DNA from: a bacterium
Lineage (GTDB): Bacteria; Patescibacteriota; Minisyncoccia; UBA6257; 02-FULL-45-10c
Assembly: GCA_030700025.1 (NCBI GenBank)
Contig: JAUYKI010000006.1
Coordinates: 13,428-77,427 of the forward strand
DNA length: 64,000 nucleotides
Direction of reading: 5' to 3'
Position 1 is the first letter of the stretch. Each line of letters opens with the position of its first letter. This document shows positions 19,195 to 57,320 of this stretch, piece by piece. The position numbers and the translations under genes were made by a program. The notes under the pieces were generated by a model. The model had not been told where the DNA came from. It made no database searches and worked only from the letters and a program-made list of their open reading frames with translations.

Positions 19195-20895
19195 ATGAGA
19201 GACATAACTTTATTCGGACAAACAAACTTTCGGAACCAGAAAATCCGGTTCGGCATTAAGGTAGATGACCGCCGGAGGCACATGTATATCATTGGAAAAA
19301 CCGGCATGGGTAAGACCACTATGCTGGAGAATATGATTATTGCCGACATTAATGCCGGCCGGGGCGTTGGCATTGTGGATCCGCACGGCGAGCTGGCGGA
19401 AAAGATTTTAGACTTTGTTCCGGAAAGCCGGATTAAGGATGTAATTTATTTTAATCCCCAGGATTTGGAATTTCCGATTGCTTTTAATCCATTGGAGCAA
19501 GTAGGCACGGAATTCCGCCACTTGGTGGCTTCGGGAATTATGGGCGTATTTAAGAAGATATGGCCGGATGTCTGGTCGGCTCGTATGGAATATATTTTGA
19601 ACAATTCTTTACTGGCGCTTTTGGAATGCCCAGGCTCAACTTTGCTTGGCATTATGCGGATTTTGTCCGACAAAGAATACCGTAAAAAAGTAGTGGATAA
19701 TTTGAAAGACCCGGTGGTCAAGGGCTTTTGGGTAAATGAATTTGCCAAATATACCCAGCGGCTGGAAAGCGAGGCGACGGCAGCTATTCAAAACAAAGTT
19801 GGACAGTTCGTCACCAATCCGCTGATCCGTAATGTTTTAGGACAGGGGCATTCCACGGTGGATATGCGGAAGATTATGGACGAACGGAAAATTTTAATCG
19901 TTAACTTGTCTAAAGGAAGAATCGGAGAAGATAATTCCGCGCTTTTGGGAGCAATGATTATTACCAAGCTTCAGCTGGCAGCTATGTCACGGGTGGATAT
20001 TCCGGAAAAGGAGCGCCAAGACTTTTTCTTATACGTGGACGAGTTCCAAAACTTTGCCACCGATTCCTTTGCTAATATTTTATCGGAAGCCAGAAAATAC
20101 CGGCTTTGCCTGATTTTAGCGCACCAATATATCGGCCAATTGAGCCACGGAGATAATGATAAGGTGCGGGACGCGATTTTTGGTAACGTCGGAACTATGA
20201 TTTCTTTCCGGGTGGGCGCCGAAGATGGAGAATTTTTGGAAAAAGAATTCCAGCCGGACTTTATGATGAATGATTTTGTTAATTTATCCAAATATACTTT
20301 TTATACCAAGCTGATGATTGATGGAATCGCCTCCCGGCCTTTTTCCGCCCAGAATATTGAGCCATTTGTTCCTCCGGCGGTAGCGTTCCGGAATTCAATT
20401 ATTGACGAAAGCCGGAAACGGTACGGTACTGCCCGTTCCATTGTAGAAGTTAAAATTGCAGGCGAGTGGTTAGTGGATGGCGGCCGAACAGCGGATGAAA
20501 AGCCGCCCCGCCGCGAAGAAGGATTTGCGCGTCGGGATGATCGGCCCATGCATCGCGAGGAAAGGCCCGTTTATAGAGAAGACAGGCCTATGCGTAGCGA
20601 CGACAGGCCAATGCGCCGGGAAGAACGGCCATTATCAGAGGCCTTGCGCCCGGTTCCTCAGCGTTCAGATTTTCCGCCGCGCCGGAGCAATGATTGGCGG
20701 CCAGGCGGCCAGCCTACCAGCGATGGCATTCGCAGGATTCCGGTAAGGCGGGAAGAGTTCCGTCCGGCGCCGCAACCGATGGCCCCTCGGAACGATCAGC
20801 CAAGGCCAAAAGTAGACATTGCGGATTTGAAGAAGTCTTTAGACGAAATTTTATTAGATAAAATAACCAAAGAAGAAACGGGCGGAGAAGAATAG
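19195..20895 (+). CDS. AAA-like ATPase of the TraD/VirD4/HerA (DUF87-like) group with RED-rich repetitive C-terminal tail
   Basis: RRHMYIIGKTGMGKTT Walker A preceded by RH; IVDPHGEL; Walker B LYVDEFQNF; C-terminal DRPMxREERP-like repeats. Confidence 0.6.
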   Translation: MRDITLFGQTNFRNQKIRFGIKVDDRRRHMYIIGKTGMGKTTMLENMIIADINAGRGVGIVDPHGELAEKILDFVPESRIKDVIYFNPQDLEFPIAFNPLEQVGTEFRHLVASGIMGVFKKIWPDVWSARMEYILNNSLLALLECPGSTLLGIMRILSDKEYRKKVVDNLKDPVVKGFWVNEFAKYTQRLESEATAAIQNKVGQFVTNPLIRNVLGQGHSTVDMRKIMDERKILIVNLSKGRIGEDNSALLGAMIITKLQLAAMSRVDIPEKERQDFFLYVDEFQNFATDSFANILSEARKYRLCLILAHQYIGQLSHGDNDKVRDAIFGNVGTMISFRVGAEDGEFLEKEFQPDFMMNDFVNLSKYTFYTKLMIDGIASRPFSAQNIEPFVPPAVAFRNSIIDESRKRYGTARSIVEVKIAGEWLVDGGRTADEKPPRREEGFARRDDRPMHREERPVYREDRPMRSDDRPMRREERPLSEALRPVPQRSDFPPRRSNDWRPGGQPTSDGIRRIPVRREEFRPAPQPMAPRNDQPRPKVDIADLKKSLDEILLDKITKEETGGEE

Positions 20896-25299: not shown

Positions 25300-25494
25300 G
25301 CCCAGCCCTATCTATTTCTTGGAAACAGAATAGTTTTATTCCAGCCCCGACGTAAAGTCGGGGCTCCGACATCTTTATTTTAAAAATTTAATAACGAAGC
25401 GTCGGAGCGATAAAACTTTCTTCGCCCTCGGCGTATTTTGTGGTCCAAGCAAAATACGCCTGCGGGATGTTCCTCAAAACAGATAGGGCTGGGC
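25300..25494 (-). repeat. Family-1 element, copy D (full length, TIRs GCCCAGCCCTATCT; core 25321-25473 with 63-nt insertion in the CGCT/GGA loop)
   Basis: insertion itself forms two hairpins (GCTCCGAC...GTCGGAGC and CCCCGAC-TTTAC-GTCGGGG). Confidence 0.85.
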
Positions 25495-25579
25495 GCTCGG
25501 TTTGTTTGGGTATTGGGAAGGCGGTAGCGGCTTCGTTATTCTTGTTTAAGTTATAAAATCGTGATATAATATAATAACT

Positions 25580-27376
25580 ATGACCGAAAAAGGCCCCGAC
25601 TTCCTCAAAAAGAAATACGACCTCCACAAAGCTCCGGAAACGGAAACCGCCGCCAAGCGGACGGAAAAAAGAACTAACGAAAAAGTCCCTCAAGCTCCGG
25701 AAGCCCGCATCCAAAACTACCTCAACCGCTTCAAGGAAATCATAGACCGGAAAGACCCGGAAAAACGGGAAAGAGGCCTGGAAGCCATAAAAAAAGTCCT
25801 CTACGATAAATTCGTCATCCAAGAAAACGAAATCCCGGAATCATACTTTGAACTCCAAAAACGGATTGCGAGAGAACAAGGCCATGGAGAAATTGAAATC
25901 TCCAAAGAACAAAAAGACCAGCTAACCGAAGTAGTCATTACCGACCAAAGAACCACCTTGGATAACTGGGTAGACTACCTATCCTCTCCAGACGCCACCT
26001 ATCCGGACTGGCTCAAATACTGGACTATCCGGAGCATTCTGGGAATAGGCGAATACGACAAAGAAAAGAAAGAATTCACTAAACGCTCCAAAAGCACTAC
26101 CAAGCCCTTCCTGGATATCAATCGGGAAGCTTTAGCCTATGTGCTAGACGCCGTTTCCAAAAAATACGGCCAACAGCACACCAATCTCCTTAACCTCAAT
26201 GAGCAAGAAAGAAAAGACTTTGAATCCCTCCTCCAAGGAGAAAACTTCGCCAAACTCTATGCCTGGGCAATAGAAAAAACTACCGTCGCTCCTCAAGAAG
26301 CCCTGGCTAATACCCAAGGCAAATGGATTAAATACAACCAAGGACAAGACCATATGCCCTTAGTCCAATCCCTTCAAGGACACGGCACCGGCTGGTGCAC
26401 GGCCGGAGAATCCACCGCCAAAACCCAGCTTCAAGGAGGGGATTTCTATGTCTTTTACTCCATGGACAAAAAAGGCAAACCCACCCTTCCCAGAGTGGCT
26501 ATCCGCATGAACGGCAATCAAATCGGAGAAGTCCGGGGAATTGCTCCGGATCAAAACTTGGACCCCTATATCGGCGATATAGTCCAAAAGAAAATGACCG
26601 AATTTCCTGACGGCAAATCTTATGAGAAAAAAGCTGGAGACATGAAAATGCTGACTGCCATAGAACAGAAAACCCTTCGGCTCCGCTCAGGGCAAGCCAA
26701 TCAAGAATTGACCAGGGAAGAATTACATTTCCTCTATGAAATGAACCAAAAAATTCAAGGATTCGGCTATCAAAGAGACCCGCGGATTGAGGAACTAAGA
26801 AAACAAAGAAATTCGGAAGAAGATATGTTGATTATTTTTGAATGTACGAAAGACCAGATTGCCCACACTCCGAAAGAAATCAATTCAAATACTAAAGCCT
26901 ATGTCGGTAAAATTAAACTGGGTATTTTTCAAAAACTACCAGAAAATATCGAGCATGTTTATACTGAATTCCCTGACAAGAAAGTTTTTATGAAAGAGAT
27001 TGTCTCGGATGAAGAAATTATTTCTGCTAAAACCGCCATTCAAAAACTCGAAGTTCAAGGGCACAAAATTGGCGACTATGCCAGAGATATGTTATCCAAA
27101 GTAAATTGGAAGGAAAGTCTAAAAGACTCCTACAACATTATCTCTATTTCTGTTGGGGAACTTTTCGGTGACGCAAACTACCATAATTATGCCGATATCA
27201 AAGCCAAAGCTCGAGAAAGTGGCCTAGACATTATTCCAGCTTCTCTCGCTCCATCAATTCGTTTGAATTATGATAAAAATGGCGAGTGGACAGTCCTCGC
27301 TATGGAAGCGATGCGCGACCGTGACGGTAGTCTTAGGCGTTTCGGCTGGGACGGGGTGGTTCTGAGTCGTGGTTGA
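25580..27376 (+). CDS. DGR target protein (variable C-terminal CLec/FGE-like tail; VR frameshifted in this assembly, probable true end 27444)
   Basis: 3-prime 136 bp (27306-27441) homologous to TR at 27744-27879; differences almost all at TR adenines; AAC-codon register continues past the annotated stop in another frame, ending ...RFFFVRK. Confidence 0.75.
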   Translation: MTEKGPDFLKKKYDLHKAPETETAAKRTEKRTNEKVPQAPEARIQNYLNRFKEIIDRKDPEKRERGLEAIKKVLYDKFVIQENEIPESYFELQKRIAREQGHGEIEISKEQKDQLTEVVITDQRTTLDNWVDYLSSPDATYPDWLKYWTIRSILGIGEYDKEKKEFTKRSKSTTKPFLDINREALAYVLDAVSKKYGQQHTNLLNLNEQERKDFESLLQGENFAKLYAWAIEKTTVAPQEALANTQGKWIKYNQGQDHMPLVQSLQGHGTGWCTAGESTAKTQLQGGDFYVFYSMDKKGKPTLPRVAIRMNGNQIGEVRGIAPDQNLDPYIGDIVQKKMTEFPDGKSYEKKAGDMKMLTAIEQKTLRLRSGQANQELTREELHFLYEMNQKIQGFGYQRDPRIEELRKQRNSEEDMLIIFECTKDQIAHTPKEINSNTKAYVGKIKLGIFQKLPENIEHVYTEFPDKKVFMKEIVSDEEIISAKTAIQKLEVQGHKIGDYARDMLSKVNWKESLKDSYNIISISVGELFGDANYHNYADIKAKARESGLDIIPASLAPSIRLNYDKNGEWTVLAMEAMRDRDGSLRRFGWDGVVLSRG

Positions 27377-27441
27377 ATGACGATGATGGTCGCGATGACG
27401 ACAAGTGGGACGGTAACGGCCGGTTCTTCTTTGTTCGCAAG
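27306..27441 (+). repeat. DGR variable repeat (VR) at 3-prime end of target gene
   Basis: ~136 bp homologous to TR; about 20 TR-A to VR-G differences, 2 non-A differences, one 1-nt deletion in a G-run (27349-27357). Confidence 0.8.
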
Positions 27442-27494
27442 TAGCTTAATTCTTAAATCTTAAGCCCTTTAAACATCTCTTTTTCCTTATCCCT

Positions 27495-27523
27495 TATAAC
27501 TTTTTAAAAAATATTGTTATAAT
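27495..27523 (+). promoter_or_regulatory. candidate promoter with extended -10 (TGtTATAAT) reading toward the DGR template repeat
   Basis: TGTTATAAT at 27515-27523 in AT-rich spacer between VR and TR. Confidence 0.35.
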
Positions 27524-27743
27524 ATATCCGAAAGTAGGTGAATACGCAGACGACTAAGGTTTTCTGCCACCCAAATCAGTATCCATATATCGAGAATATT
27601 TCAGACCAAGGTTTGAAATAGAGTGGTGTATGCAGATTCTTCATAAAAAATGAAGTTACTTGGTTTAGAATCTAGGGCATTATGATGCCGAATACGATAC
27701 AGCTCTGAGAGTATTCTAGGGGCGGTGGTGTAGACGGATTCTA

Positions 27744-27879
27744 AACAATACGCGACCGTGACGGTAATCTTAGGCTTTTCAACTGCAACAGGAATGGTTC
27801 TGAGTCGTGGTTGAATAACAATAATGGTCGCGATGACAACAAGTGGAACGATAACAACCGGTTCTTCTTTGTTCGCAAA
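27744..27879 (+). repeat. DGR template repeat (TR)
   Basis: A-rich with many AAC/AAT codons in the target frame (NNNNGRDDNKWNDNN); followed by hairpin CTCTCCCGAT-TTTGT-ATCGGGAGAG. Confidence 0.8.
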
Positions 27880-27884
27880 TTATT

Positions 27885-28250
27885 TCATTTCTCTCCCGAT
27901 TTTGTATCGGGAGAGTTTTGTTTTGTAAGCTGTCCAAACCAACCGCCAAGCATTTTACCCACCTCATTTATTTTTTCTGAAAGCGCAATATATTTTTTAT
28001 TATCAAGCGACTTGTTTTCCCAAAGAATAAGGAGAAAGATGTTGAGCGTATTGATTTTTTTAATTGCAAGCCTTACATAAGGCGCCTTTTCTTCTCGAGA
28101 AAGAAAAACGGCAACAGAAATAGCCTCTATTGTATCGGTAAATAGATTATCTATCTTTTGACCGATGGTATATCTATGGTTTTTAGGTAGGATCCGGTAA
28201 TATTCATACCAAAGCTGGTAACCGCCTTTGATTTTCTGCAGAATTGGCAA
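27885..28250 (-). CDS. avd: DGR accessory variability determinant (Avd-like four-helix-bundle protein)
   Basis: 121 aa; resembles bAvd/four-helix-bundle family (YQLWYEYYRILPKNHRYTIGQKI ... INEVGKMLGGWFGQL); TTG start; opposite strand to TR and RT. Confidence 0.65.
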   Translation of the reverse strand: MPILQKIKGGYQLWYEYYRILPKNHRYTIGQKIDNLFTDTIEAISVAVFLSREEKAPYVRLAIKKINTLNIFLLILWENKSLDNKKYIALSEKINEVGKMLGGWFGQLTKQNSPDTKSGEK

Positions 28251-28293
28251 TAAATTTGCGAGGGGGGGGGGCTTTTAATGGATCGTTATTGTT

Positions 28294-29286
28294 ATGAAAA
28301 TTCAATTGGCTCATAAATTTGAAGACATTATAAGCGTGGAAAATCTATTGGAGGCATGGAGAGAATTTATCCGAGGAAAACGGAGCAAAAAAGACGCCCA
28401 AGAATTTTCTATTAACTTGATAGATAATATTTTCTCGCTTCATTCCGACCTTGCTGATTTTACCTATAAGCACGGCGGTTATCAAGCCTTTAATATAAGC
28501 GACCCTAAGCCGAGGAATATCCATAAGGCCAGCGTCCGAGACCGCCTGCTTCACCATGCTATTTATAGAATTCTTTACCCATTTTTTGATAAAACTTTTA
28601 TTCCTGATTCTTATTCCTGCCGGATAAATAAGGGTACGCATAAAGCCATAAATCGGCTCCGCTCTTTTGCTTACGAAGTCAGCCGGAATAACACTAAAAC
28701 CTGCTGGATATTAAAGATGGATATAAGAAAATTTTTTGCCAATATTGACCACCTTATTTTACAGGATATTTTGAAGCAATACATACCGGATAAAAATATC
28801 TTATGGCTTTTAGATAGAGTGACTGAGAGTTTTTCCTCGCCATACGGCAATAATAAGGGTTTGCCCCTGGGCAATCTAACCTCCCAACTATTGGTGAATA
28901 TCTATATGAATGAATTAGACCAGTTTGTGAAGCATAAATTAGGAATTAGGCATTATATAAGATACGCGGATGATTTTGTGATTTTGCATGAAAATCGGCA
29001 GTATCTTATAAATCTTTTGCCAAAGATGTCAGTATTTTTAGAAACGCGATTAAAGCTTTTGCTCCATCCGTATAAAGTATTTATTAAAACACTTGCCTCT
29101 GGAGTTGATTTTCTTGGCTGGGTGCATTTCCCGCGCCATCGGATATTGCGGACCGTAACTAAACGAAGAATGTTTAAAAAAATAAATCAAAATCCTACAA
29201 ATGAAACCGCGGCTTCATATTGGGGATTACTTAGTCATGGAAATACGCACAAGCTGATTCATAAAATACGAAAGCTACTCTACTAA
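28294..29286 (+). CDS. diversity-generating retroelement reverse transcriptase
   Basis: 330 aa; RT motifs incl. YADD (IRYADDFVIL); DGR-type motif 4 LPLGNLTSQ (SQ instead of group-II QG); DRLLHHAI motif 2. Confidence 0.85.
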   Translation: MKIQLAHKFEDIISVENLLEAWREFIRGKRSKKDAQEFSINLIDNIFSLHSDLADFTYKHGGYQAFNISDPKPRNIHKASVRDRLLHHAIYRILYPFFDKTFIPDSYSCRINKGTHKAINRLRSFAYEVSRNNTKTCWILKMDIRKFFANIDHLILQDILKQYIPDKNILWLLDRVTESFSSPYGNNKGLPLGNLTSQLLVNIYMNELDQFVKHKLGIRHYIRYADDFVILHENRQYLINLLPKMSVFLETRLKLLLHPYKVFIKTLASGVDFLGWVHFPRHRILRTVTKRRMFKKINQNPTNETAASYWGLLSHGNTHKLIHKIRKLLY

Positions 29287-29309: not shown

Positions 29310-29345
29310 ATAAAAATCCCCGACATAGCGTCGGGGAATATTTTT
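29310..29345. terminator. bidirectional rho-independent terminator between convergent RT and putA genes
   Basis: CCCCGACATAGCGTCGGGG flanked by A-run and T-run. Confidence 0.7.
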
Positions 29346-35230: not shown

Positions 35231-36637
35231 ATGCCATTACATAATTTAGCTTTCTGGTTTTGCGCGTTTTTTCTTGCGGGCATATTTTTGATCAGTATTT
35301 TTAATAATTTTCTCATCGCCTTAGTTATTAGTTTGTTAGTTGTAAGCTATTTGGTCTTTTTGCGGAAATATATTTTTGCCTTGCTGGCGTTAGCGATGAT
35401 TTTAGGCGCCGGTTATTATCAAATTTTCGGAGTAGTTCAAAAATCGCAAACACTGATTCGTTTTGATGAAAAAATAGAGTTTCAAGGCATTGTAAAAGAC
35501 GCGCAAAAATCTGCCACTAGCCAGCAATTAATTTTGGATTTAGAACTGCCTCTGAACGGGAAAGTCCGCATAAATGCCCAGCGTTACCCGGATTTTAATT
35601 ATGGGGATTTAGTAAATGTTACGGGGGTGATTAAAAATCCGCCAGCGCGATCGGAAAATTATTATAAAAAAGAAGGCATTAGCGGGATAGTAAGTTTTCC
35701 GGAAATCCGATTATTGGAAACCGGCCGCGGCAATCCGGCGCTGGCGGCGCTTTTTAGTTTTAAAGAAAGTATAGAAAATGTTTTTCGGAAAATTTTACCG
35801 CAGGAAAAAGCCGCGTTTTTATCCGGCATTACTTTGGGCGAACGGGAAAGTTTTTCTAAGGAACTGGAAGAGAAGATGTCTTTAAGCGGAACCACTCATT
35901 TAGTGGCGCTTTCCGGCTATAATATCACGGTTATTGCTCTGGCAATTGGCTGGTTATTTGGCTCATTTTTGGCCCGTAGAGCCTCGTTCTACCTAAGCGT
36001 GGCGGTTATTGTTCTATTCGTCTTAATGGCCGGGGCAGAGGCGTCGGTAGTGCGGGCGGCGATTATGGGTATTATCGCGCTGGTAGCCCAGCATACCGAG
36101 CGGGCGCATAGCGTCCGAAACGCCATTATTATCGCGGCCTTTTTGATGGTCTTGGCGAATCCGCGGGTGCTGGTTTTTGATCTGGGCTTTCAGCTTTCTT
36201 TTGCCGCGCTTTTAGGAATTATTTATATTTCGCCGGTGTTAAAAAAGGTTCTGAAAATTCAAAACCAAGGATTCCTAAATTGGCGGGAGAACCTAGTTAC
36301 GACGCTTTCTGCCCAGTTAGCGGTTGTGCCTTTCTTGCTGGGTAATTTCGGAGCGTTTTCCCTGACCTCATTTTTAGCGAATATCTTGGTTTTGGAAGCG
36401 GTGCCGGTTACTATGGGCTTGGGATTTCTGGCGGGCGGATTAGGATTGATGACGGATTTTTTGGCAAAAATAATCGGCTGGCTGTTGAATATATTAATCG
36501 GCTATGAATTTTGGGTTATTAATATATTTTCCAAAATAACTTTGCCGATAGCCGTAGAATCATTTGGCTTTTTGCCCGCTATAATCTACTATGTGTTATT
36601 AGTTGGACTCATCTACAAACTTCATAAGTTAAGTTAA
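35231..36637 (+). CDS. comEC: DNA internalisation competence protein ComEC/Rec2, membrane (competence) domain
   Basis: 468 aa; N-terminal DUF4131-like segment and polytopic ComEC core (LSGTTHLVALSGYNITV). Confidence 0.8.
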   Translation: MPLHNLAFWFCAFFLAGIFLISIFNNFLIALVISLLVVSYLVFLRKYIFALLALAMILGAGYYQIFGVVQKSQTLIRFDEKIEFQGIVKDAQKSATSQQLILDLELPLNGKVRINAQRYPDFNYGDLVNVTGVIKNPPARSENYYKKEGISGIVSFPEIRLLETGRGNPALAALFSFKESIENVFRKILPQEKAAFLSGITLGERESFSKELEEKMSLSGTTHLVALSGYNITVIALAIGWLFGSFLARRASFYLSVAVIVLFVLMAGAEASVVRAAIMGIIALVAQHTERAHSVRNAIIIAAFLMVLANPRVLVFDLGFQLSFAALLGIIYISPVLKKVLKIQNQGFLNWRENLVTTLSAQLAVVPFLLGNFGAFSLTSFLANILVLEAVPVTMGLGFLAGGLGLMTDFLAKIIGWLLNILIGYEFWVINIFSKITLPIAVESFGFLPAIIYYVLLVGLIYKLHKLS

Positions 36638-51800: not shown

Positions 51801-54800
51801 ATGTCCTCTGAAGAACACCAACAAAATTTTAAAGAGGCCTTGCTTCATTATTTTGGCATCTTAGTTTTAGCTTTAATTTTTCTTTTCCCGGGAAAGCCCC
51901 AGGCTGCTCCAGGGCCGTTGCCACAACTGGTGGGCTATCTTGCGGTGGATTCCGGCGCTAATGTTTTTCATACCTATGATTCTATAGATATCGCGGGAAC
52001 TAAAGTTTTTCTGGCTATGAAAAACCGCAATGTTATTCGGGTGGTAGATGTTTCGTCTCCAACGAACCCTGCCATTATTGCTACATCTTCTCCTTTAGCG
52101 GCAGATTTTTTTATCGGATTGGTAAATAATATCGCGTACACTATTATGGGAAATTATTTCCAAACGGTGGATATTTCCAATATAAATAATATGCCCGTTT
52201 TGGATAATTGGGGTTCGTATGGTTTGGCGCCAACCTCATTGGCTACTCGAAATGGTTATACCTATGTTTTGTATTTAATGGAGAACAAGATGCGAATTTT
52301 CGACGTAACTAATTCCGCTAATATTCAAAATGTCGGAACTATCAGCACTAGTCCGCACCCGGCCTATATTCGCATTAAAGATTCCTACGCCTATGTTATA
52401 ACCACAGGAATGTTGTCAGCGCCAACTCTAGAAATATATGATTTAGCCGATCCATCAAGGCCAATACAGGTTGGAAAAATTAGTACCGTATATGCCGCGC
52501 ATGGCCTTCGAATTGCCGGAAATTTTGCCTATGTATTAGTAGGCCTAAATACATTGCAAGCTTATGATATATCCGATCCGACACAACCAAGGGCCGTAAG
52601 CGCCATTCAAATTGATAATCAGTCGCCTGCTTTAGATATCGCCGGAAATTGCGCTTATGTAGTAAGCCGGGGAGCCAATACCTTGCAAGTTTTTAATATT
52701 GCCGACCCCTTGCACTTGAAAAGGTCTGGATCAGTTAATCTCGGTCCTGGCGTTACTCCGGCCGATATTAGGGTGACTAATAATTATGCTTATGTCGCTA
52801 ATAACTCCTCGCAAACATTACCGAGCCGATCGAATTTAGAGATTTTTGACATCAGCAACGTTCAGGCACAAGGATGCCCGGGCATTGATGCTACTTCGGT
52901 TTCGTTATCATCGGCTCCAATAGTAACTACGACCACCGCGATTCCGAATTCTTGTCCGGCGCTGGTGAATTTAAACCCGACCGTACAGGGTCAGACAGGC
53001 GTACTAGGAATATCTTATAATTTAGAAACTATCAAAGTTTCTGGAAATTGGGCGTTTGTTATTGCCCAGGATCTAAATACTTTAAATTCTATTAATATTT
53101 CCGACGTAACCCAGGTAGCTCTTAGAACTAGGCAAGGCGGCGCCAGCTTCATCAGAACCGGATCGCTCCCCCTTGATCTTTTTGTATCGGGAAATTTTGC
53201 TTACGTAATTACCGGTTCTAATTTGCTTCAGGTCTTTGACGTTTCTGACCCTTTAAATATGAGTTTGGTGGGAACGATTGCTACGCATCAAAGCCCAAAT
53301 TCGGTATTTGTTTCCGGCCAATATGCTTATGTAGTGAATACCGGACCTCGAACTTTGCAAATTTTTAACGTGGCTAACCCCCAAAATATCTCAGAGGTTA
53401 GTTCTTTAAAAGTAGATGGTGCCGGCTACGGCGTCGCGGTAACTAATGGTTACGCTTATGTGATTAATGGGATCGGAAAAGATTTGAGAGCTTATGACGT
53501 CAGTAATCCCGCTAATCCAAGATTGGCCGGATTGATTGGAACTACCGGCGCGCCCAGCGGTTTATTTATTAAAAATAATTTCGCTTACGTAGTTACACAT
53601 TTAGGATTAGAAATTTTTGATATTTCTAATCCATCCCAAATTCAGAAACGCGGCCAGTCAGCAGTCACCGCGTTATCCCGGTCAATATTTGTTACCGAAA
53701 ACTATGCCTATGTGGGAAAAATAAGCGGGGCAGTTGCCGATCCGAATAGTGGATCCACGGTTCAGGCCAATTGGGTAATTTTTGATATTTCCGATCCGGA
53801 TAATCCAAGAATCGCGGCCGGTAATTTTAGCAATCGGATTTTTGACTATGGACTTTATATGCGATCCACTTTTGTAGTTGGCAATTACGCTTTTGTCACC
53901 GAGAACTCCATCACTCGCGGCCAAAACAGTTCTATACGGGTTTTTTGCATTTCTCCTACAGAAAGCGGTGTGGCTTGCGGTTGTCCGCCGCCGACTCCAG
54001 CTCCAGCGCCCACTGTTGCCACAGCGGTTGCTCCACCCGTGAGTCCGGTGGTTACGGCGCCGACAACTAGCTCGCTTAATTTGGCATTAGCGCCGGAGTT
54101 GGTTGGTTCGGCCCAGACCGGAGACGAACCAGTTTCAATTTTTATTTATGGCCATCATTGTTACGTTATCAACCGCATTACCGGCTCGGTTCAAATTTTT
54201 GATATTTTGGATCCGAATAGTCCGGTTTTAGTAGGAGAGTTTCAAACTGATCCCGGGCCGGAGAGAATAGAAGTCGCGGACGGTTTTGCTTATGTGGTTA
54301 GCGGAGCTTCGGACACGCTCCAAATTTATAATGTTTCTGATCCCAGCAATCCGCGATGGGTAAGTTCCATCAGAACCGGCAGATTTCCGAATTTCATCCG
54401 AAGATCCGGGCAATATATTTACGTCACTAATCGGGATTCTAATACGTTACAAGTTTTTGATGTTTCCAATTCCGCGAGCCCGAGATTGGTTAGCAGCGCC
54501 AATTTAGGGCCTTGCACTTGCCACACCTACATAATTAATAATTATATTTATATTACTAATGAAGGATCTAATGCTTTGCAAGTTTTTGACATTGCGGATC
54601 CGACCCGTCCTCGTTTAGCCGGTTCGGCAATTACCCGGCCAAATCCCCGCGGAATTTATGTTTTTGGAAGCTATGCTTATGTTTTGAGTTATCAAGGAAA
54701 TACTCTGGAAGTTTTTGATGTCTCTAGTCCTTCCCGGCCTCGGTCGTTGGGTTGGACCAATACCGCCGCGGGCGCGCATTCCATTTTTATCCGGGGGCCT

Positions 54801-57320
54801 TACGCTTTTGTAACTGCTTTTGACGCCCACCAGCTCCAGGTTTTTGACATTAGCGATCCGGCTAGTCCGGCGCTGGTTACCTATATTAATACCGGGCCAT
54901 GCGCTTGCGGTTTATACGTTGCCGGAGATTACGCTTATGTTTTAAATACCAATGGAGACGCGCTTCAAGTTTTTGATATCAGCAGGGTATTGGCCCGTCG
55001 GGCGAATGCCAGGATATTGCGTCCCGTATTTATCAATCGTTTTAATACCGGAGCGGATCCGCAGGATCTTTGGGTAGCCGATCAAACTGTTTACGTAAAT
55101 CCTGTTTCGTCCGAAAGAGTCCAGATTATTGATTTTTCCAATCCGGATAATCCGGTGAATGTCGGCATTGTCCGTACCAATGGCGATTCGCGCTCGGTTT
55201 TTGTGTTTGATTGCTTGACTGGAAAATGTTTGTGCGTAGTAAATTGGATTACTAATACAATTCAGATTTTTGATATTTCCAACCCGAATCGTCCGCGGGA
55301 AACGGGCCGGGCTAATTTAAGTTTGGGCGCTTGGGACGTAGACGTTGCGGCGCCCTACGCTTATTCGGTGAGTTATAACTCCGGAATCTTAGAAGTTACT
55401 GATTTATCCAATCCTAATAGTCCGGCAGTAGTGGGCCGGGCCAGCACTAATCCCCAGCCATTCGCGGTTGAAGTAGCCGGCAGTTATGCCTATGTAATTA
55501 GTTTTGGTTCCGACGAAAGCCCGACAGCGCGGGGAACATTGGAAATTTTTAATGTTTCTAACCCATTTTTGCCGGTTCGGGTCAGCAGTATTCCAACCAG
55601 CAGAAGCCCCAGAGGAATTTTTATTTCCGGCAATAATGCGTACGTAGTTAACTGGGACGCCAATAATTTAGAAGTTTTTGATATTACTTCGCCGTTTAAC
55701 CCTAGCTTGATTGGTTCTATCGGCACCGGCCAGAATCCGCGATCTGTATTTGTAGAAAATAATCTTGCTTATGTCGCGAATACCGGATCGGATACTTTGC
55801 AAGTGTTTGACGTTTCCAATCCTTCGGCAATGGCTCTTCTTTATGATTTAGCAACTGATCAGGATCCAAGAGCGGTTTTCGTTGATGACCCATTTGTTTA
55901 CGTCGCTAATAGCGGTCCGGACACGGTTCAAGTATTTGATCTTTACGGCGGCACCAGTGTTTTTCCGTCCGCATCTCCATTAGCAGAATTTTTTGCAGCG
56001 GCTTTGCCTCCGGAAGCGGTAACAGTTGTCGGAGAGGCGAGGTCAATTGAATTGGCTTTATCATCGCCAGTGACGGCAGAGGAATCAGAATTGATTTCGC
56101 CGTTGACCGAGGGCGTAACGGAGCCGGTTGCGCTGCCGGAAGATGAAGTTGTAGCAGCTCAGCTCCAAACTCCAGGACAGCCGGAAAATCTGGTAGACGA
56201 ATCCATAACCCCGGTAATTCCGATACTGGAATTACAAACTCCTAATTTATTTGCGCCGGAAATTTACAATAGCCAATTATCAGCTCCGGCGCCCGCTCCG
56301 ATTGCGGTTTCTTTATCTCCGCAAGAACAATTAAATATTACTGCGAATCAAGAAAGAGCTAGGCAGGCAGCTCAATTAGCGAGACAAGCCGTATCCGAAG
56401 CGCGTTTATTGGCGGATCAGGCGGAGGCGGTGGCGGATCAGGCGAGGAATTCAATCAATGAAGCGGAGCGGGCGATTTATCCGTCGCTTCTGGCTATGAA
56501 TCCGAACAATCTTATTAATTTGCCGCAATTGGGCGTTCCCGGGGCGCAAGGAGTTATTCAAGCAAGCCAGGAAATCGCCGAGCAATTGCAAGAAGCAGTA
56601 ACGGCAATGGAAGAAGCGATTGAAGAAGCGGAACAATCGGCAGAGGTAGCGCAAGCTGAATTAGAAAATGCCGAGAATGCAGTTAGCGTTTCTGATGCCC
56701 AATCCGCAGCCGACAGAGTCCAAGATGCTGTTGATGACGTTGTGGCTCAAACCAATGAAGCGTCGGCGCAAGCGGAACAAATTTTGGCGTTAGCCGAACA
56801 GGTCAGCCAAATTACGGAACAAGCCGATGTTTTGGCTGAGTCCGCGTCGGTTTTGCCGGATTCCATTATAGCTTCGGACCTAAGTCAATTAACGGCCGAC
56901 CTACTTTCCTTAGAAGGGGACCGCCGTATGACTGGCGGAGGAAGTTTTGCCGATGCTACGCATGGCTTTGAATTACATTGCGACGCTAATGATTTGCCGA
57001 ATAATTTAGAAATTAATTGGCTGGGACGCGGACGAAGTTCGGGAAGCCATTATTTTCATTTAGAAAATCTAGTTTCTGCCGTTTGCAGTGATGATTCCGA
57101 AATTGACGAGGAGATGCCGGTGGCGGGATTTGATACTTATGTCGGATCGGGCCACGGTCGGTATGACGGAATTTCCGGCGCGACAATAGAATTTACTTTA
57201 ACGGATGCCGGCGAGCCGGGCAGAAATGATTTTACCAAAGTGGTAATTAAAGATAAGGACGGCGCAGTAGTTTTGGATGCTTCCGGCGCTCTTAAGTTCG
57301 GCAATCATCAGGCGCATTAA
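51801..57320 (+). CDS. giant surface protein with >25 LVIVD-type beta-propeller repeats, Pro/Thr linker, coiled-coil region and unique C-terminal domain
   Basis: 1839 aa; signal-anchor; repeated units ...YAYV...LQVFDISNPxxPxxVG...; APTPAPAP linker ~aa 720; AEQ-rich coiled coil ~aa 1500-1650. Confidence 0.75.
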   Translation: MSSEEHQQNFKEALLHYFGILVLALIFLFPGKPQAAPGPLPQLVGYLAVDSGANVFHTYDSIDIAGTKVFLAMKNRNVIRVVDVSSPTNPAIIATSSPLAADFFIGLVNNIAYTIMGNYFQTVDISNINNMPVLDNWGSYGLAPTSLATRNGYTYVLYLMENKMRIFDVTNSANIQNVGTISTSPHPAYIRIKDSYAYVITTGMLSAPTLEIYDLADPSRPIQVGKISTVYAAHGLRIAGNFAYVLVGLNTLQAYDISDPTQPRAVSAIQIDNQSPALDIAGNCAYVVSRGANTLQVFNIADPLHLKRSGSVNLGPGVTPADIRVTNNYAYVANNSSQTLPSRSNLEIFDISNVQAQGCPGIDATSVSLSSAPIVTTTTAIPNSCPALVNLNPTVQGQTGVLGISYNLETIKVSGNWAFVIAQDLNTLNSINISDVTQVALRTRQGGASFIRTGSLPLDLFVSGNFAYVITGSNLLQVFDVSDPLNMSLVGTIATHQSPNSVFVSGQYAYVVNTGPRTLQIFNVANPQNISEVSSLKVDGAGYGVAVTNGYAYVINGIGKDLRAYDVSNPANPRLAGLIGTTGAPSGLFIKNNFAYVVTHLGLEIFDISNPSQIQKRGQSAVTALSRSIFVTENYAYVGKISGAVADPNSGSTVQANWVIFDISDPDNPRIAAGNFSNRIFDYGLYMRSTFVVGNYAFVTENSITRGQNSSIRVFCISPTESGVACGCPPPTPAPAPTVATAVAPPVSPVVTAPTTSSLNLALAPELVGSAQTGDEPVSIFIYGHHCYVINRITGSVQIFDILDPNSPVLVGEFQTDPGPERIEVADGFAYVVSGASDTLQIYNVSDPSNPRWVSSIRTGRFPNFIRRSGQYIYVTNRDSNTLQVFDVSNSASPRLVSSANLGPCTCHTYIINNYIYITNEGSNALQVFDIADPTRPRLAGSAITRPNPRGIYVFGSYAYVLSYQGNTLEVFDVSSPSRPRSLGWTNTAAGAHSIFIRGPYAFVTAFDAHQLQVFDISDPASPALVTYINTGPCACGLYVAGDYAYVLNTNGDALQVFDISRVLARRANARILRPVFINRFNTGADPQDLWVADQTVYVNPVSSERVQIIDFSNPDNPVNVGIVRTNGDSRSVFVFDCLTGKCLCVVNWITNTIQIFDISNPNRPRETGRANLSLGAWDVDVAAPYAYSVSYNSGILEVTDLSNPNSPAVVGRASTNPQPFAVEVAGSYAYVISFGSDESPTARGTLEIFNVSNPFLPVRVSSIPTSRSPRGIFISGNNAYVVNWDANNLEVFDITSPFNPSLIGSIGTGQNPRSVFVENNLAYVANTGSDTLQVFDVSNPSAMALLYDLATDQDPRAVFVDDPFVYVANSGPDTVQVFDLYGGTSVFPSASPLAEFFAAALPPEAVTVVGEARSIELALSSPVTAEESELISPLTEGVTEPVALPEDEVVAAQLQTPGQPENLVDESITPVIPILELQTPNLFAPEIYNSQLSAPAPAPIAVSLSPQEQLNITANQERARQAAQLARQAVSEARLLADQAEAVADQARNSINEAERAIYPSLLAMNPNNLINLPQLGVPGAQGVIQASQEIAEQLQEAVTAMEEAIEEAEQSAEVAQAELENAENAVSVSDAQSAADRVQDAVDDVVAQTNEASAQAEQILALAEQVSQITEQADVLAESASVLPDSIIASDLSQLTADLLSLEGDRRMTGGGSFADATHGFELHCDANDLPNNLEINWLGRGRSSGSHYFHLENLVSAVCSDDSEIDEEMPVAGFDTYVGSGHGRYDGISGATIEFTLTDAGEPGRNDFTKVVIKDKDGAVVLDASGALKFGNHQAH

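Follow-up and report, generated by a model that had tools for sequence, protein, structure and literature searches.

The locus at positions 25580-29286 of the 64,000-nucleotide stretch of DNA that we analysed (the window) is, with high confidence, a chromosomal diversity-generating retroelement (DGR) of the CPR-typical architecture B3, with the order target/variable repeat (VR) - template repeat (TR) - (avd) - reverse transcriptase (RT), in a metagenome-assembled Patescibacteria genome (MAG). All four parts of a DGR were verified, namely the RT, Avd, the TR/VR pair and the C-terminal position of the VR. The DGR call of the initial annotation is thus supported by a DGR-clade RT, an Avd homologue, adenine-specific TR/VR differences and a C-terminal VR. 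Its description of the element as complete holds for the presence of the four parts but not for the target allele of this assembly, which is frameshifted. The architecture had also been considered unusual; it is not, since TR-(avd)-RT is the published B3 arrangement, which 90% of CPR DGRs display (Wu et al. 2018, NAR, PMC5758913), and all 72 related loci are alike. In the Figure 5 legend of that paper, which we used as the definition, B3 consists of TR, a reverse-strand avd and the RT gene without other accessory gene, and the coordinates in the window follow this order: TR at 27743-27879 (+ strand), avd at 27885-28250 (- strand) and the RT gene at 28294-29286 (+ strand). Avd is encoded divergently, just upstream of the RT gene, in 72/72 related loci with enough upstream DNA, and the TR adjoins the 3' end of avd, with the VR 380-565 nt upstream, in more than 60 relatives. 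The present element resembles the CPR B3 DGRs of Wu et al. (2018) in gene order, strands and the single adjacent target with a C-terminal VR, its host belongs to the same radiation, and its RT is 60-72% identical to those of dozens of such elements. There is no difference at the level of the cassette; the present copy is distinguished by solely to-G substitutions and a frameshifted VR, and non-A substitutions as well as occasional frameshifting indels are known in the CPR DGR set too (PMC5758913). The neighbouring genes encode EF-P, PutA, MnmA and ComEC, and the best named matches of MnmA are Patescibacteria; the cassette is in a chromosomal neighbourhood and not phage-borne. Paul et al. 2017 (Nat Microbiol) is reportedly a further source on CPR/Patescibacteria DGRs.

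A repeat search returned two blocks, 27306-27355/27743-27792 with a spacing of 437 and 27357-27451/27795-27889 with a spacing of 438, indicating a 1-nt indel between VR and TR. Together with the alignment, this search confirmed the repeat at the gene end and the TR, both of which had been noticed initially. The VR spans 27306-27441 on the + strand, with weaker similarity to the TR flank as far as 27451, and the TR comprises 137 nt with 43 adenines. Differences were counted by global alignment combined with an ungapped 3' end. From TR to VR, 21 positions differed: 18 were A>G, one was a deletion at a TR adenine, one was T>G and one was C>G, and all 20 VR substitutions ended in G. Of the 21 differences, 19 coincided with one of the 43 TR adenines (hypergeometric P=1.2e-9). 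The adenine bias noted in the initial annotation therefore stands, while its count of 20 of about 23 becomes 18-19 A>G among 21-22 differences. Read in the target frame, 12 of the 46 TR codons are AAY (translation ...NNNNGRDDNKWNDNNRFFFVRK), yet this A-rich copy is non-coding. Among relatives, 93% of 1,197 TR/VR differences were located at adenines; A>C and A>T were observed beside A>G at the TRs of more than 60 of them, A>G being the main outcome in the lineage (57%). In a sister locus (L082), the TR is 91% identical to the present one, and most differences between its own VR and this TR are at TR adenines.

The 3' ends of VR and TR share an identical A-poor segment of 21 nt (27420-27440 and 27858-27878), after which the flanks diverge. 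No 14-bp GC-only block was found, nor a GC-rich IMH after the VR at this locus. The sequence 3' of the VR does not fold stably here (MFE 0), while a structured VR 3' flank is present in 51/64 relatives. A degenerate VR/TR pattern did not match any JGI metagenome contig. A Logan contig from run SRR13727534 crosses the VR unbroken, speaking against a strongly heterogeneous VR in that sample.

The target gene (25580-27444, + strand) is assembled as a 598-aa ORF with a TGA at 27374-27376. The VR had initially been taken as the last 136 bp of this ORF, but the ORF stops mid-VR at 27376 through a frameshift at 27353-27356, where the VR reads GGGG and the TR reads AGGAA (27790-27794). Restoring one G after 27356 gives a 621-aa reading that ends at the TAG at 27442-27444; the 1-nt deletion at a TR adenine is thus the reason why the target stops at 27376 (598 aa) and not at 27444 (621 aa). 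With this nucleotide restored, the VR is the C-terminus of the 621-aa protein. More than 100 homologues, 600-630 aa long, aligned with 99-100% of the frame-corrected target, and at the sister locus L082 the target frame stays open as far as ...FFFVRK*.

The frameshift could also be an error of sequencing or assembly in a stretch that is variable and rich in G, the real gene having the intact 621-aa form. The deletion lies in a G run, in which GGGGG rather than GGGG is expected if all three TR adenines are converted to G; moreover, chimeric assembly of variable regions can occur in MAGs, and the homologues are almost all full length. However, we consider an error unlikely, since an independent Logan assembly (run SRR13727534), made with a second assembler, was 100% identical over 25450-28704 with the deletion included, and 1-nt indels shifting the VR frame were found in three other related genomes (L018, L037 and L045). 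Frameshifting TR/VR indels have likewise been reported in 11/372 DGRs, 74% of the TR/VR indels being adjacent to AAC (PMC5758913).

The N-terminal ~480 residues of the target belong to an uncharacterised family in which the motif GHGTGWCTAGES is invariant. A resemblance of the VR to CLec/FGE-type variable regions had been proposed and was not recovered in sequence searches: no member of the target family (41 tested) matched Pfam FGE-sulfatase, Lectin_C or DUF1566 at E<=0.1. The target-family profile did not match any PDB chain, and Foldseek returned nothing significant for the target. In comparison with Treponema denticola TvpA and other DGR variable proteins with a C-type lectin fold, the present target has no sequence-level match to any Pfam lectin or FGE family.

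The RT ORF (330 aa) matched PF00078 (E=4e-24) and carries YADD and GLPLGNLTSQ, motif 4 reading LGxxxSQ, which bears out the DGR-type RT with YADD and LPLGNLTSQ recognized initially. Among solved structures, the best match was bRT of Bordetella phage BPP-1 (8ub7, E=6e-41), the best group II intron RT reaching 2e-21. The RT retains K29, F66, R74 and I76 and has Leu in place of I181. Genome contigs yielded 364 relatives of this RT; the best 80 of the 364 showed 60-72% identity and came mostly from CPR MAGs. By its closest solved relative and by motif 4, the RT is assigned to the DGR clade. A group II intron RT/maturase was rejected: the model TIGR04416, although the top NCBIfam match by score, gave 139.5 bits against a cutoff of 300, and no intron or retron RNA family was found in the window. 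A retron or defence-associated RT was rejected as well, all models remaining below their cutoffs (retron St85, 49 bits for a cutoff of 235; Drt2/3a/4, 23-63 bits for 200-450; AbiA, 20 for 250).

The minus-strand ORF of 121 aa had been read as Avd-like, and indeed it passed the cutoff of PF22296 bAvd (42.3 bits, cutoff 40). It matched NF033474 DivGenRetAVD with E=6e-17 at 61.9 bits, below the cutoff of 80; TIGR02436 was not significant, and a search of the PDB with the Avd sequence returned no match. NCBI annotates the product as a 'four helix bundle protein' (MDP3999155.1). The gene points away from the RT gene and towards the TR RNA. Its TTG start and the adjacency of its 3' end to the TR, both pointed out initially, were confirmed, the stop codon (TCA at 27885-27887 on the + strand) lying 5 nt past the TR.

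Upstream of the TR and abutting it, we identified a structured RNA leader of ~215 nt (27530-27746, + strand), conserved in 68 related loci. Five helices were predicted by RNAalifold: P1 (27530-27577), P2 (27584-27632), P3 (27663-27673 paired with 27736-27746), P4 (27676-27689) and P5 (27702-27723), all on the + strand. The leader shares 70-80% nucleotide identity with those of related loci, and its consensus fold contains 55 pairs, 43 of them with compensatory changes. Pairing was retained in 97.8% of cells compared to 36-48% with the partner slid, and the observed values were reached in 0/500 shuffles. In the 68 loci found by nhmmer, the leader was always on the + strand and ended mostly within ~5 nt of the TR start; that of the present locus scored 196 bits, level with its relatives. 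Searching 27400-28320 against Rfam gave no match at E<=1, RT-10 included, and up to E=10 a single weak JUMPstart match (E=2.5). An extended -10 promoter-like box, TGTTATAAT (27515-27523, + strand), precedes the first helix by about 7 nt, and most rows of the leader alignment A3 share the conserved column block TGnTAnAAT. We infer a promoter role for this box from its sequence; it was not listed by a simple sigma-70 scan that required a -35 hexamer.

Within the leader, the A-rich strand AAAUGAAG (27648-27655, + strand), a candidate primer-side strand, is complementary to UUUCAUUU in the TR 3' flank (27883-27890, + strand), a segment that includes the avd stop codon on the other strand. The A-rich strand is followed by a 7-nt linker, UUACUUG, with a near-invariant ACUUGG, and then by the 5' strand of P3. 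Complementarity between the leader strand and the 8 nt 3' of the TR covaries across loci: in 40 loci, the cognate mean was 6.9, compared to 5.69+/-0.19 for permuted pairs, and was reached in 0/5000 permutations. In this subfamily, an alternative is a local hairpin of AAAUGAAG with CUUCAU (27639-27644). In most of the more than 60 loci with a mapped TR, TR/VR homology begins within a few nucleotides of the P3 end, which fits a cDNA stop at a duplex upstream of the TR, as in BPP-1 (bioRxiv 10.1101/2023.10.23.563531).

Directly after the TR, a terminator scan and folding (z=-4.3) detected a G+C-rich 10-bp hairpin (27891-27915) followed by UUUUGUUUUG, the whole spanning 27891-27925 on the + strand and sitting within the last ~13 codons of avd. 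Such a terminator-like hairpin was present on the + strand in 50/65 related loci, with 41 distinct stems, and on the minus strand in 0/65; the frequency in random windows was 1.5%. By its sequence, it looks like an intrinsic terminator on the strand of the TR RNA. By analogy, the same hairpin may be the Avd-binding stem-loop that lies just downstream of the TR in other DGRs (bioRxiv 10.1101/2023.10.23.563531). Avd-binding and Stop elements have been predicted downstream of the TR for CPR DGRs too (bioRxiv 10.1101/2023.10.23.563531), which competes with the terminator reading. The 43-nt avd-RT intergenic region contains a G10 homopolymer (28262-28271, + strand), after which comes an AT-rich -10-like motif. 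In 57 related loci, a tract of 8-13 G, with a mode of 10, occupies the same position. Over 831 kb there were 62 homopolymers of 8 or more G or C, and 60 of these lay here. The leader, the TR-flank pairing and the poly-G tract are common to the whole lineage; no earlier description of them was found in the DGR literature searched, nor in Rfam 15.

Taken together, the leader, the TR-flank pairing, the hairpin and the poly-G tract suggest, by analogy, that the RNA is a circular permutation of that of the phage DGR. We consider it possible, though somewhat short of probable, that the CPR B3 DGR RNA is a circularly permuted BPP-1 RNA of ~390 nt with its own promoter and terminator and that the poly-G tract is a phase-variable switch. 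If so, the ~215-nt leader upstream of the TR would supply both the primer-side strand and the strand of the stop duplex, and the permutation would account for the antisense position of avd directly after the TR; the hypermutable G8-G13 tract in the divergent avd-RT promoter region would be an on/off switch of the mutagenic machinery.

Judging from sequence and analogy for the priming site, RNA ends and promoters, a short DGR RNA would be transcribed from its own extended -10 promoter, starting near 27530 and ending at the hairpin and U-tract near 27920, while avd and the RT gene would be transcribed divergently from the poly-G region. The TR would be looped out between two duplexes sharing one leader strand: AAAUGAAG would pair just 3' of the TR and, past the 7-nt linker, the P3 strand (27663-27673) would pair just 5' of it. 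RT-Avd would then prime in cis near 27655/27656 and copy the TR from ~27882 to the base of P3, misincorporating where the template has adenines, after which the VR would be replaced by the cDNA. The VR allele seen here may stem from such an event, with 18 A>G, two other to-G changes and one skipped adenine, the skipping of which would have left the target frameshifted and truncated; later homing from the intact TR could restore the target frame.

A second explanation for the truncated target is a decaying, inactive DGR whose target is becoming a pseudogene. Besides the frameshift, the lack of a strong hairpin or GC-rich IMH after the VR and the clonal appearance of the VR in one sample (SRR13727534) would be consistent with this notion. 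It appears improbable, since the RT and avd ORFs are intact with the catalytic and fidelity-related RT residues kept, the poly-G tract, the promoter box and the terminator hairpin are likewise intact, and the RNA leader scores as high as in relatives. Moreover, only 2/21 TR/VR differences are off-adenine, which indicates little neutral drift since the last homing event, and the deletion lies at a TR adenine, as expected of a by-product of the mutagenic step. That the locus is no DGR, but a group II intron, retron or defence RT beside a duplicated gene end whose G-to-A hypermutation produced the 'TR', is exceedingly improbable: one-directional deamination could also yield changes that are all between A and G or to G, and the group II intron RT model is the top NCBIfam match, but this reading is contradicted by the model cutoffs (139 bits against 300, with retron and Drt models far under theirs), the lack of intron or retron RNA families, bRT as the closest solved relative with an E-value lead of 20 orders of magnitude, the adjacent Avd, the A>C and A>T changes at the same kind of TR in relatives, and the in-frame AAY codons of a non-coding copy.

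The DGR assigned here shares with that of BPP-1 (mtd-VR, avd, TR, Sp, brt) the RT-Avd pair with conserved RT residues and the adenine-specific transfer from TR to VR. The BPP-1 RNA consists of a template:primer duplex, a short linker, the cPRT Stop duplex, a stem-loop and adenosines (bioRxiv 10.1101/2023.10.23.563531); the likeness proposed here lies in two duplexes that share one strand and bracket the TR, with a short stem-loop and then a single-stranded A-rich segment after them. In contrast to BPP-1, avd is on the opposite strand downstream of the TR, so that an antisense avd gene and not a structured spacer (Sp) of the BPP-1 type lies between TR and RT; the structured RNA is 5' rather than 3' of the TR, and the elements for priming and protein binding are proposed to lie upstream; the terminator-like hairpin directly follows the TR; and the element is chromosomal rather than phage-borne. 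The present locus also differs from BPP-1-type RNAs, represented by the Rfam RT-10 motif (PMC5737381), in lacking an RT-10 match. In topology only, the proposed RNA would resemble retron msr-msd RNA, with a structured non-coding RNA ahead of the template in one transcript and a leader whose pairing past the template would bring the priming nucleotide to the template 3' end; a retron, however, is set apart by the DGR-clade RT and by the presence of Avd and a VR target here. Finally, A>G is the main change in the present lineage, whereas bRT in vitro mostly inserts A opposite A.

The 330-aa open reading frame (ORF) at 28294..29286 (+) matched the reverse transcriptase (RT) family RVT_1. Its closest solved structure was the RT of the Bordetella phage diversity-generating retroelement (DGR), bRT (8ub7; E=6e-41), while group II intron RTs reached no better than 2e-21. 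Residues K29, F66, R74 and I76 of bRT, which contact the template and the dNTP in the bRT structure (bioRxiv 10.1101/2023.10.23.563531), are kept in this protein, and its GLPLGNLTSQ motif aligns with GIPIGSLTSQ of bRT. Models of group II, retron, Drt and AbiA RTs all scored far under their cutoffs. The minus-strand ORF of 121 aa (27885..28250, TTG start) passed the Pfam bAvd model with 42.3 bits (cutoff 40) and was hit by NCBIfam DivGenRetAVD at E=6e-17, under the cutoff of that model.

The template repeat (TR) and the variable repeat (VR) were recovered by a repeat search as two blocks, 27306-27355/27743-27792 and 27357-27451/27795-27889, whose spacings of 437 and 438 differ by one base and thus indicate a 1-nt indel. 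When TR (27743-27879) was aligned globally with VR (27306-27441), with the 3' end left ungapped, 21 positions differed: 18 A>G, one T>G, one C>G and one deletion at a TR adenine, where VR GGGG (27353-27356) lies opposite TR AGGAA (27790-27794). The initial annotation had proposed tabulating this alignment by TR base. We found that the 43 adenines among the 137 nt of TR carry 19 of the 21 differences (hypergeometric P=1.2e-9). Moreover, 12 of the 46 TR codons in the target frame are AAY, and across the related loci with mapped TR and VR adenines account for 93% of 1,197 differences. The initial annotation had named the DGR parts correctly, and the locus is a genuine DGR. A degenerate TR scan of the whole window, allowing any base at adenines, returned no second VR but only this VR and TR, indicating a single target. 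The degenerate VR/TR pattern (N at each TR adenine) gave 0 matches in JGI metagenome contigs.

We then looked at the consequences for the target gene (25580..27444, +). The 1-nt deletion makes the annotated target ORF stop early, at 27376, so that it encodes 598 aa. With one G restored, the protein has 621 aa and a C-terminus ...FFFVRK* at 27444. More than 100 homologues, 600-630 aa long, aligned with 99-100% of this form, which also has the near-invariant F618 and K621 of the homologue alignment. In the sister locus L082, whose TR is 91% identical, the target is in frame to the end. A long-read homopolymer error behind the frameshift was unlikely, as a Logan assembly of run SRR13727534 is independent and identical, with 100% identity to the window over 25450-28704, deletion included. 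The recovery of the same deletion by this independent assembly would also make assembler error an unlikely source of the frameshift. Frame-shifting 1-nt indels were found in the VRs of three further genomes as well (L018, 4973-5098; L037, 4996-5123; L045, 4983-5120), that is in 4/65 loci in all, and two of these three additional indels lie at or beside TR adenines. Frameshifted VR alleles thus recur at about 6% in the lineage. In the survey by Wu et al., 11 of 372 DGRs had frameshifting indels, and 74% of all TR/VR indels adjoined AAC (PMC5758913). The deletion may be a by-product of mutagenic reverse transcription, and the intact TR could mend the frame at the next homing event. The target family itself comprises more than 3,500 homologues, none of them annotated, and carries an invariant GHGTGWCTAGES motif. 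The target had no match among Pfam, NCBIfam and PDB sequences, and Foldseek against the PDB gave no significant match.

All 20 TR-to-VR substitutions end in G. Viewed from the cDNA, each error is a dCMP insertion; the template base was A in 18 cases, and U and C in one case each. In the relatives, TR adenines had changed on average to G in 57%, to C in 20% and to T in 23% of cases, and 18 A>G out of 18 had a P value of 4e-5 given this family mean. The adenine spectrum varied significantly between the relatives' loci (P=4e-7), and their commonest off-adenine changes were T>G and C>G. An A>G-only spectrum as a property of the RT lineage was rejected on the basis of these mixed outcomes. Indeed, A>G, A>C and A>T are all present in the sister locus L082, so the lineage as a whole is not fixed for this A>G bias. 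A skewed dNTP pool during one homing event would account for the all-G spectrum. In vitro, bRT was shown to insert A most often opposite A (PMC7826257). Specific to this copy is a frameshifted VR in which every substitution is to G. The locus would represent a clean natural case of a mutagenic homing event harming its own target, with one adenine skipped and all misincorporations being dCMP, and such a self-damaging event is relevant to the cost that DGRs carry in nature and to the kinds of error they make.

In a further step, we compared the architecture with that of related loci. We found 364 RT relatives in a species-representative genome collection, and the best 80 of these, with 60-72% identity, came mostly from metagenome-assembled genomes (MAGs) of the candidate phyla radiation (CPR). 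In each of the 72 loci with sufficient upstream sequence, avd is encoded on the opposite strand as the gene directly ahead of RT; TR adjoins the avd 3' end in 60+ related loci, and VR is located 380-565 nt farther upstream. This architecture had been called unusual in the initial annotation. The gene order is, however, that of class B3, 'TR-(avd)-RT', which makes up 90% of the CPR DGR set of Wu et al. and is scarcely found outside (PMC5758913). The layout is thus normal for CPR hosts, and the element is an ordinary member of this well-documented class. DGRs in CPR genomes have already been catalogued by the hundreds, and since the class is so well known and the target family is large, the locus on its own changes little. 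Of wider interest are the non-coding parts that comparison with 68 relatives reveals to be lineage-wide, and which lie outside the initial finding: a covarying RNA leader, its pairing with the TR flank, a poly-G tract and, within avd, a candidate terminator. These parts lead to testable predictions for cDNA priming and regulation in the most abundant DGR architecture. To our knowledge, the priming mechanism of DGRs has so far been resolved experimentally in a phage element alone, whose layout is different.

The VR-TR spacer is not neutral: its final ~215 nt showed 70-80% nucleotide identity in more than 30 loci, although in most related loci the target protein shares at most a C-terminal domain with the target in the window. 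A TGnTAnAAT box at 27515-27523 is conserved in a 32-locus alignment, ~7 nt upstream of the first helix. For the leader (27530-27746, +), RNAalifold predicted 55 pairs in helices P1-P5, of which 43 are kept through changes on both sides. In this structure 97.8% of cells are paired, compared to 36-48% when the 3' partner was slid by 1-3 columns; 0 of 500 column shuffles reached any of the five observed measures, and folding of the single sequence gave the same helices (z=-5.6). An nhmmer search with the leader profile identified 68 related loci, with the leader on the TR strand in every one. In the majority of loci where TR was mapped, the leader ends at most about 5 nt from the first TR/VR-homologous base, and here the 3' strand of P3 (27736-27746, paired with 27663-27673) adjoins the TR start with slight overlap. 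No Rfam 15 family matched the leader; the only Rfam hits at gathering thresholds were tRNAs in other parts of the window, and a search of 27400-28320 at E<=10 gave nothing but a chance JUMPstart hit.

We observed that leader segment AAAUGAAG (27648-27655) has its complement in UUUCAUUU (27883-27890), the segment directly 3' of TR. Mean cognate complementarity over 40 loci was 6.9, compared to 5.69+/-0.19 after permutation, and none of 5,000 permutations reached 6.9. Independent compensatory classes were found, namely UAAAG/CUUUA, AGAAG/CUUCU, CAAAAG/CUUUUG, AAAAGAAA/UUUCUUUU and AACC/GGUU. This covariation supports a predicted long-range interaction between the leader and the TR 3' flank. In the subfamily of the window, AAAUGAAG can alternatively pair locally with CUUCAU (27639-27644), so that alternative structures are possible.

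Directly past the partner strand in the TR flank, a 10-bp hairpin followed by UUUUGUUUUG occupies 27891-27925 (+), within the last ~13 avd codons (~109-121) and antisense to avd. Its conservation was assessed by positional enrichment relative to the opposite strand and to random windows: 50 of 65 loci have a comparable hairpin on the plus strand and 0 of 65 have one on the minus strand, compared to 1.5% of random windows, and 41 different stems occur across loci. MAFFT combined with RNAalifold predicted 0 pairs for this hairpin, because the alignment shifted stems of unequal length out of register. The hairpin and its U-tract are consistent with a terminator-like element on the TR-RNA strand, for which they are a candidate. 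A preprint survey, limited to the 40 nt before and the 100 nt after TR, assigned to CPR DGRs an Avd-binding stem-loop just downstream of TR (bioRxiv 10.1101/2023.10.23.563531), which may be identical with the hairpin that we read as a terminator. The avd gene is without a recognisable terminator, and its transcript may thus run antisense into TR.

The order of these elements resembles that in phage BPP-1, where TR forms a loop between two duplexes. In the template:primer duplex of BPP-1, Sp53-56 pairs with TR118-121 and the 2'-OH of Sp A56 serves as the primer; after a gap of two nucleotides, Sp59-70 forms the 'cPRT Stop' duplex with 11 nt just upstream of TR, and this is followed by a short stem-loop, adenosines making A-minor contacts and then protein-binding elements (bioRxiv 10.1101/2023.10.23.563531). 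The leader presents, in order, the strand pairing 3' of TR, a 7-nt linker containing a near-invariant ACUUGG, the strand pairing just 5' of TR (P3), the short stem-loop P4, a conserved A-rich single strand and P5, and the leader is followed by TR, then by the partner strand and last by the hairpin and U-tract. Whereas all priming, stop and protein-binding elements of BPP-1 lie downstream of TR, their putative counterparts at this locus lie upstream, in the leader. By analogy, the RNA would have the same topology as that of BPP-1, with the chain opened at another point. The leader would then be the counterpart of the BPP-1 elements, an analogy on which the putative priming nucleotide, RNA ends and protein binding are likewise based.

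Between the divergent avd and RT genes, we found a run of ten G (28262-28271). A tract of at least 8 G occurs at the same site in 57 related loci (8-13 G, mode 10), indicating that the run is no oddity of this assembly. The tract lies a median of 9 nt away from the avd start codon on one side and a median of 21 nt ahead of the RT ATG on the other. In 831 kb of sequence from related loci we counted 62 homopolymers of 8 or more G or C, 60 of them at this site. Downstream of the tract we observed an AT-rich -10-like motif, (C/T)NTTAAAAG or TAGAAT; no sigma-70 -35/-10 pair with convincing spacing fitted the tract in the window. We hypothesize that the tract has a role in the divergent promoters, possibly through slippage-based phase variation; we found no literature linking DGRs to such a G tract. 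The VR 3' flank (27445-27511) had no stable fold (minimum free energy of 0 over 65 nt), unlike in 51 of 64 relatives, where this flank is structured; its only inverted repeat is a weak AT-rich one, GCTTAA/TTAAGC, at 27444-27465.

The window lies within an 86.6-kb MAG contig, and NCBI lists the proteins as MDP3999154.1-56. For the neighbouring MnmA, all of the best named homologues come from Patescibacteria/CPR, and the genes flanking the cassette (EF-P, FAD oxidoreductase, PutA, MnmA and ComEC) indicate a chromosomal rather than a phage location. Less than 10 kb from the DGR are genes for a type IV secretion coupling-protein-like ATPase (19195-20895) and for the competence protein ComEC (35231-36637), and a 1839-aa ORF is found at 51801-57320. 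Similar palindromic G+C-rich hairpins, CCCCGACGTAAAGTCGGGG (25345-25363) and CCCCGACATAGCGTCGGGG (29318-29336), flank the entire cassette, one ahead of the target gene and the other just past the RT gene, and may be either terminators of neighbouring genes or the edges of an inserted cassette.
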